DNA of 37,954 nt from UHGV virus genome UHGV-0114795; one strand, given 5' to 3'. Position 1 is the first letter of the stretch. Each line of letters starts with the position of its first letter. Made by a program: the position numbers and the translations under genes. The notes below the pieces were generated by a model. That model saw only the letters and a program-made list of their open reading frames with translations, searched no databases and was not told the origin of the DNA. The stretch comes from a virus. Positions 31,856 to 31,972 of the stretch are shown in pieces.

Positions 31856-31881
31856 ATGCCCTCCATAGTAACCATGAAACA

Positions 31882-31910
31882 ATAATACGATATGTACTTT
31901 TAGAATGCAA
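31882..31910 (-). promoter_or_regulatory. PR promoter (predicted) with overlapping operator
   Basis: On minus strand TTGCAT - 17 nt - TATTAT upstream of cro; spacer contains the GTACT-rich motif shared with the PL region. Confidence 0.55.
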
Positions 31911-31972
31911 ACAAAAAATACATCTTGTGCATGGATGGTTTTAGTACAGAGCGTAATAATAAGGGTATGAAA

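Follow-up and report, generated by a model that had tools for sequence, protein, structure and literature searches.

The divergent cro and cI genes of the virus genome UHGV-0114795 are separated by a short gap in which, as in the region of the predicted PL promoter beyond cI, A/T-rich strings containing GTAC recur, and the question that this locus raises is whether these strings are part of what the CI and Cro proteins of the phage recognize and, if so, to which immunity type the switch belongs. The stretch of DNA analyzed here (the window, 37,954 nucleotides) comes from a lambdoid phage and is oriented opposite to the lambda map. The gap between cro and cI spans 111 bp, PL lies beyond cI and upstream of N, and the minus strand beyond cro carries a cII-like ORF and replication genes. 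Both regulators contain an HTH_3 domain, which in CI (Pfam E = 8e-11) is coupled to a Peptidase_S24 domain (E = 9e-29), and the CI recognition helix (TQGGIGHW) is nearly the same as that of Cro (TQG[G/A]IGHW in both). This is the organization of a lambdoid switch: cI and cro diverge from a short gap, a second regulated promoter lies across cI, CI joins an HTH to an S24 (LexA-like) domain, Cro is a small HTH protein, and three related imperfect dyads are found both at OR, overlapping PR and PRM, and at OL, overlapping PL (Table 1). The interval from cI to OL (32627-32704) is devoid of rexA/rexB-like genes and of any other ORF, and the terminator-like hairpin is directly followed by OL3. A search of Rfam over 30800-33600 returned no known RNA family.

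Table 1. Coordinates of the genes, predicted promoters and operator sites of the switch region (positions are those of the window; site centres are relative to the predicted start of PR for OR and of PL for OL).
Feature	Position	Strand	Description
cro	31640-31855	-	71 aa; HTH_3; recognition helix TQGAIGHW
cI	31967-32626	+	219 aa from first ATG; HTH_3 N-terminal and S24 autopeptidase C-terminal domain
N	33119-33445	+	DNA downstream of PL annotated as N in close relatives
Intrinsic terminator-like hairpin, then T-run	32657-32678	+	After cI, just before OL3
Predicted PR	31882-31911	-	Drives cro; -35 TTGCAT/TTTGCA 31905-31911, -10 TATTAT 31882-31887; promoter scan
Predicted PRM	31932-31960	+	Weak -35 TGGATG 31932-31937, -10 AATAAT 31955-31960
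Predicted PL	32752-32780	+	Drives N operon; TTGACT 32752-32757, 17 bp, TACTAT 32775-32780; promoter scan
OR1	31883-31899		TAATACGATATGTACTT; contains GTACT; PWM rank 2; half-sites invariant in six phages; centre ~-16, over PR -10 and spacer
OR2	31916-31932		AAATACATCTTGTGCAT; PWM rank 7; annotated in AP005153; centre ~-49, upstream of PR -35
OR3	31942-31958		TAGTACAGAGCGTAATA; contains AGTAC; PWM rank 4; annotated in AP005153; centre ~-75
OL1	32763-32779		AAGTACAAATCGTACTA; best dyad; PWM rank 1; annotated homolog in AP005153; centre ~-16, over PL spacer and -10
OL2	32738-32754		TAGAACATTTTGTATTG; PWM rank 3; annotated homolog in AP005153; centre ~-41, over PL -35
OL3	32705-32721		AAATACAAAACGTTATA; PWM rank 5; annotated homolog in AP005153; centre ~-74

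The strings on which the earlier note had based its candidate motif are essentially where it had placed them. The first, GTACTTTTAG, starts at 31894, in the spacer of the predicted minus-strand PR, and TTTTAGTAC is found at 31939; near PL, GTACTATTTAG occurs at 32774 and overlaps the PL -10, and AAAGTAC is present as well, but starts at 32762 and not within the range that had been given for it, which began at 32763. The recurrence of GTAC in both regions is real and unlikely to be due to chance, with four copies in 218 bp against 0.47 expected from the 81 copies in the window (Poisson P ~0.0013).

These GTAC strings are very probably fragments of six 17-bp dyads, of the form w-A-R-T-A-C-(N5)-G-T-A-Y-T-w, that would serve as operators for CI and Cro in a lambdoid arrangement and that correspond to the VT2-Sakai type. 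The recurring unit (w-ARTAC-N5-GTAYT-w) is an imperfect dyad, with three copies in the cro-cI gap and three more at PL; on present data its extent may be 13, 15 or 17 bp. Read towards the centre, the 12 half-sites comprise AGTAC and AATAC, with four instances each, and single instances of TGCAC, ATTAC, AGAAC and ATAAC, the terminal AC alone being invariant (12/12). The previous interpretation of the GTAC strings as CI/Cro half-sites is upheld by the comparative evidence presented below, but GTAC itself appears in just 4 of the 12, exactly those that had been noted; in the same way, the strings belonging to OR1, OR3 and OL1 had been picked up and the sites without GTAC (OR2, OL2 and OL3) had been missed. 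The only exact instance of AGTAC-N5-GTACT within the window is OL1. OR2, on the other hand, combines a left half that equals the consensus with a degenerate right half in every relative, its left half AATAC and G78 being invariant in an alignment of six cro-cI gaps and its position being kept in eight relatives. A pattern derived after the sites had been seen, ARWACANNNYGT, has eight matches in 38 kb against 2.5 expected, and seven of these eight lie in two clusters of ~75 bp. A repeat search with 6-bp seeds found nothing in OR and just partial pairs in OL, a kind of search that is blind to these sites because they are too short and degenerate.

A symmetrised position weight matrix (PWM) was built from the six published VT2-Sakai/PST1 17-mers alone and used to scan 37,938 positions of the window. 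Five of the six sites took the first five ranks and OR2 the seventh (Table 1); rank six fell to a match that outscores OR2, at 31230-31246 (AAATTCCATTTGTATTT) in the 3' end of the cII-like ORF. We rejected this lone PWM match as an extra operator, since it is probably due to chance, and we also rejected a second candidate (32722-32738, in the OL3-OL2 interval), which is not conserved in the Stx1-converting phage. Because the Stx phages are homologous to the window over both operator regions, the PWM test is not evolutionarily independent, and it is the distant relatives that supply independence. Within the homologous DNA, an alignment of OR and OL between the window and the Stx1 phage shows differences in 3 of 72 half-site columns, 7 of 30 central-five columns and 36 of 113 columns outside the sites (~32%), the contrast between half-site and outside columns being significant (Fisher, P = 2e-6).

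These data bear on the notion that the repeats reflect nothing but chance similarity among A/T-rich promoter elements and have no role in repressor binding, a reading that we find scarcely credible. The OR and OL regions are indeed A/T-rich, a PWM match of comparable score exists outside the switch at 31230-31246, and a loose search for AGTAC-N5-GTACT (up to two mismatches) reveals no window-wide enrichment (11 matches against 8.4 expected), for which reason its matches were not used as evidence. However, six of the seven best PWM matches are confined to two 75-bp stretches at the expected promoter positions, the half-sites are conserved in spite of the divergence of the DNA between them, and the layout recurs in eight phages or prophages of five genera with changes in the half-site that correlate with the recognition helix.

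The comparison with the Stx1 phage also defines the limits of the site. The earlier note had joined GTAC to an A/T-rich flank (TTTAG or TTTTAG), and it could be argued that the recognition unit is a ~9-11-bp A/T-rich GTAC + TTTAG element, GTACT(A)TTTAG and its inverse, occurring once or twice per promoter. The composite (GTACT-TTTAG or TTTAGTAC) is found three times in the two regulatory regions and just once elsewhere in the window, and TTTAG also precedes OL2. Yet this flank is not conserved in relatives: in the homologous OR flanks of the Stx1-converting phage, the recognition helices of which are the same, GTACTTCTCA and TTCCAGTAC stand in place of TTTAG while the dyad half-sites are unchanged, and the flanks differ again in P6 and in the Klebsiella, Erwinia and Enterobacteriaceae isolate L012 elements. 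Because of the change to GTACTTCTCA and TTCCAGTAC, the TTTAG flanks cannot be considered part of the site. Moreover, a unit of this kind leaves three conserved sites devoid of GTAC unexplained, and a dimeric HTH protein needs a dyad, for which a partner half-site is available 5 bp away in every case. A GTAC + TTTAG unit is, hence, very improbable, and the 17-bp dyad is the reading retained here.

More distant relatives were chosen by virtue of related Cro or CI N-terminal domains. The three-site layout is kept in eight phages or prophages from Escherichia, Salmonella, Klebsiella, Erwinia and Vibrio. Each cro-cI gap of five further elements with TQG-IGH helices (the Stx1 phage, Enterobacteriaceae isolate L012, Erwinia phyllosphaerae L013, Salmonella phage P6 and Klebsiella phage ST340-VIM1phi10.1) harbors three ARTAC-N5-GTnnT sites, and when these five gaps and that of the window are aligned with MAFFT, the invariant columns are essentially the half-sites, the GC of the PR -35 and GTAATAAT. 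Elements with other helices carry other half-sites, arranged in the same way: ATTAC-N5-GTAAT in Vibrio H8, with SQSAIAH in CI and SQSSVNH in Cro; ATAC..GTAT in g341c, with TKGAVSH and TRGAVCH, in agreement with the epsilon34 consensus WTACRAWWTGTAT; and ACAC-N5-GTGT in mEp213, with a QSR..N helix. Among those relatives for which the fetched DNA reached the far side of cI, a second cluster (OL) with its own half-site variant lies beyond cI in P6, the Klebsiella phage, H8 and mEp213. An Avibacterium relative (46% Cro identity, helix SQPRIANY) presented no clear three-site pattern under a loose filter, and a scan of contigs with Cro yielded six loci, three of which were informative. Such tracking of the recognition helix, together with presence at the two early promoters, is what characterizes immunity operators. 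Lack of conservation among phages that share the CI DNA-binding domain had been named beforehand as grounds for discarding the motif, and in such phages it is conserved. The six sites, in short, exist, give the window's best matches to the operators published for VT2-Sakai, are selectively conserved and co-vary with the recognition helix.

Some of the records retrieved in this survey deserve separate mention. The repressor of P6, a sewage isolate, is annotated as two coding sequences (L004 719-1382), and its cI is probably defective, because the first of them is cut short by a frameshift within the recognition helix (…KTQGGDRSLA*). Contigs in metagenome-assembled genomes labelled Bacillota (L009) and Segatella copri (L011) encode Cro proteins 99-100% identical to that of the window, and are most likely mis-binned coliphage or prophage sequences. 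A Cro 97% identical to that of the window is encoded near the record start of Klebsiella phage phiKp_30 (LC768498.2, 704-916).

Immunity types are defined genetically, by failure to plate on a lysogen of the prototype, and the earlier note had held that the specificity of this switch could not be assigned to any known one. Sequence comparison indicates otherwise. The region 31600-32850 is 99% identical to Escherichia phages vB_EcoP-720R6, Dewey, Louie and vB_EcoP-683R2, and cro-cI presents 92.8% DNA identity to Nil2, the Stx1-converting phage (AP005153), Stx2 II (AP005154), 2851 and the PA-series Stx2a phages. At the protein level, Cro is 98.6% identical to its counterparts in the Stx1-converting, Stx2 II and 2851 phages, and the N-terminal 83 residues of CI share 96.4% identity with the VT2-Sakai-type prototype group. 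The differences between the window and the Stx1-converting phage lie outside the recognition helices of CI and Cro (GCTQGAIGHWESG), and these helices are likewise identical to those of VT2-Sakai, Stx2 II, Nil2 and 2851. This identity allows the specificity to be placed in the VT2-Sakai type, and the operators of the window match the six published 17-mers (ranks 1-5 and 7 with the PWM, three half-site differences in 72). The predicted specificity is that of the described VT2-Sakai (Sp5)/Stx1-converting/Stx2 II/Nil2/2851 immunity type.

The operator set itself is already published and annotated, and the present finding, although correct in essence, is a known one. In AP005153, three 17-bp 'putative operators' are annotated in the cro-cI gap and correspond, by offset, to window positions 31884-31900, 31916-31932 and 31942-31958, the first being off by 1 bp from OR1 (31883-31899); three more operators are annotated at PL, and the PR and PRM elements are placed as they are here, including the PRM -35. 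The PL promoter of the same record (L003 2228-2255) is mislabelled 'putative maintenance promoter for CI'. The PA-series PST1 phages correspond to the Stx2a prophage of strain Sakai (Yin et al. 2015, PMC4587872), and Table S5 of that work lists six PST1 17-mers that are the same as the O157:H7 Sakai operators of Fattah et al. 2000 (Genes Genet Syst 75:223), the source to which PMC4587872 and PMC10742460 attribute the VT2-Sakai operators. The reverse complements of the Table S5 17-mers are exactly the six sites of the Stx1-phage homolog. In the same table, the PST1 operators carry interchanged OR and OL labels. The VT2-Sakai sites were subsequently taken up in two papers, for an algorithm and for EMSA, with lambda CI in place of the cognate repressor. 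In the searchable literature, the texts of Fattah 2000 and Sato 2003 excepted, no footprint or EMSA with cognate CI or Cro was found for the VT2-Sakai immunity type, and a literature search for the literal operator strings gave no match.

The use of lambda CI in those assays is relevant to a further possibility, namely that the phage is functionally lambda-immune or cross-regulated by lambda CI, given its lambda-like C-terminal domain and distantly alike helices. The last ~135 residues of CI (84-218) are nearly identical to the C-terminal domain of lambda CI, for which structures have been solved, including the HVQAGMF cleavage region, and every VT2-Sakai site was shifted by lambda CI in EMSA (KDapp 3.7-6.4 uM), a result quoted alongside a report of cross-immunity. 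The corresponding values on lambda's own sites, however, are 0.2-3 uM, and the affinities for the foreign sites are 10-25 times weaker than for lambda OR1/OL1 and similar for all 12 of them, which looks like low-specificity binding. In addition, a PWM of lambda operators finds no match in 31856-31972 or 32700-32800, its best matches elsewhere in the window (scores 9-14) all but one falling below every true lambda operator, and neither OR nor OL contains operators of the TATCACCGC / GCGGTGATA type. The N-terminal domain of CI is only weakly similar to that of lambda (1lli, E = 0.003); the lambda DNA-binding domain is absent and the C-terminal domain alone is lambda-like. Functional lambda immunity, or cross-regulation by lambda CI, is therefore highly improbable, and the switch is not of lambda immunity. 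Within the window, the lambda-like domain (32215-32626) makes CI a mosaic protein. The PL-proximal N leader (32780-33125) is 98.8% identical to that of Sf6, HK633, HK446, mEp043 and Sf101, so that the boundary of the immunity module lies right at the PL start, a case of ordinary lambdoid mosaicism.

The placement of the six VT2-Sakai-type sites on the predicted promoters follows the lambdoid plan. The right half of OR3 is fused with the predicted PRM -10 (GTAATAAT), which, like the GC of the PR -35, is invariant in six phages, and the position of PR agrees with its annotation in AP005153. The predicted PRM start coincides with the A of the cI start codon (ATG, 31967) or is adjacent to it, this codon being located 6 nt past the -10. 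A TAATAAT-6/7 nt-ATG arrangement is preserved in the window, the Stx1 phage, Enterobacteriaceae isolate L012, Erwinia phyllosphaerae L013, P6, Klebsiella ST340 and Vibrio H8, and a cI transcript that is leaderless from this predicted start is, accordingly, probable. In lambda, the cI mRNA is leaderless and OR2 is centred at -42; here, the centre of OR2 lies ~-43 from the predicted PRM start.

The working of the switch can be outlined by analogy with lambda, from which we infer binding itself, the sequence in which the sites fill, cooperativity, activation of PRM and a leaderless start of cI. CI dimers would sit on OR1 and OL1, the best dyads, covering spacer and -10 and thereby blocking PR and PL, and occupancy of OL2 would additionally cover the PL -35. 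OR2, with one good and one degenerate half, would probably be filled cooperatively via the lambda-type C-terminal domain, and CI bound there could activate PRM; the acidic residues aligned with the positive-control patch of lambda are retained (QEKLAEE, against QESVADK in lambda). Through its overlap with the PRM -10, OR3 would silence cI transcription once occupied by Cro or by CI in excess. Finally, RecA-stimulated self-cleavage of the S24 domain would relieve repression and induce the prophage.

The centres of the sites are spaced by 33 and 26 bp in OR and by 25 and 33 bp in OL, so that the middle site alone is placed differently at the two promoters (-49 from PR, against -41 from PL). In the set compared (OR and OL of the window and loci L001, L004-L007, L012 and L013), an OR1-OR2 distance of 32-34 bp and an OR2-OR3 distance of 25-26 bp are found in eight phages or prophages of five genera, whichever the type of CI C-terminal domain; the mEp213 spacings are 23 and 24 bp. 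We have considered that, with ~3 helical turns between OR1 and OR2 and ~2.5 between OR2 and OR3, the lambda-type C-terminal domain might cooperate across the three-turn gap, leaving OR3 out of phase, unlike the adjacent-site cooperativity of lambda, and might also allow mixed oligomers of this CI with lambda CI. This combined proposal seems to us an unlikely one, although not a negligible one; were it true, such mixed oligomers would explain the cross-immunity that has been reported between lambda and VT2-Sa. The combination of a conserved three-turn OR1-OR2 spacing with a lambda C-terminal domain is, in any case, the least ordinary aspect of this switch.

Set against the VT2-Sakai-type Stx phages, the window presents homologous DNA with six 17-bp sites in the same positions and half-sites that are equal at 69 of 72 columns. 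The differences reside in the central N5 bases of five of the six sites (OL2, for instance, departs from the Stx1 phage in its central bases only), in the diverged DNA between sites and in the OR1-OR2 centre distance, which is 33 bp here and 32 bp in the Stx phage. Furthermore, OL follows right after the cI terminator in this phage, whereas the Stx phages carry ~1.5 kb of extra ORFs in between (Stx1-converting, L003 2323-3448), and the N region matches Sf6, HK633 and mEp043, in contrast to the HK97-like N of the Stx phages.

The resemblance to lambda lies in the tripartite 17-bp pseudo-dyads at PR/PRM and PL, in the HTH + S24 composition of CI, in a middle OR site located ~43 bp upstream of the predicted PRM start and in a cI ATG at that predicted start. 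The half-site, by contrast, is ARTAC here and TATCAC in lambda, the centre spacings given above depart from the 24/23 (OR) and 24/20 (OL) of lambda, and the PR -35 of this phage lies between OR1 and OR2 and not under OR2. Repressors such as those of 434 and P22 exemplify the general class to which this switch belongs: a dimeric HTH repressor and a Cro acting on short dyads with a non-contacted central spacer, with three sites each at OR and OL. Beyond this membership of the HTH_3-type repressors, the half-site sequences and site lengths of 434 and P22 are unrelated to those reported here, and there is no significant protein match past the generic HTH_3 family. A closer relationship is found with the Salmonella phages epsilon34 and g341c (Villafane et al. 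2008, PMC2629481; GenBank NC_013059), for which putative operators with the consensus WTACRAWWTGTAT and a kinship of the repressor to VT2-Sa and Nil2 have been noted. These elements share with the window a repressor N-terminal domain that is ~50-55% identical, a lambda-like C-terminal domain, an ATAC-N5-GTAT core and a three-site OR layout with 33/26-bp spacing; they differ in the helix (T[K/R]GAV[S/C]H), in the outer half-site, (T/G)ATAC, and in that their sites are annotated as 13 bp.

The VT2-Sakai-type operator set described here is thus embedded in a non-Stx, lambda-like genome background. It adds a set of natural operator variants that differ in their central bases and in the length of one spacer and, apart from this variant set and the immunity typing, it constitutes a routine confirmation of a published operator family. 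With these operators, the phage can be immunity-typed from its sequence: homoimmunity is to be expected with the Stx2a prophage of E. coli O157:H7 Sakai, as well as with other Stx phages sharing this switch, and prophages of clinical importance could exclude this phage or be cross-regulated by it.
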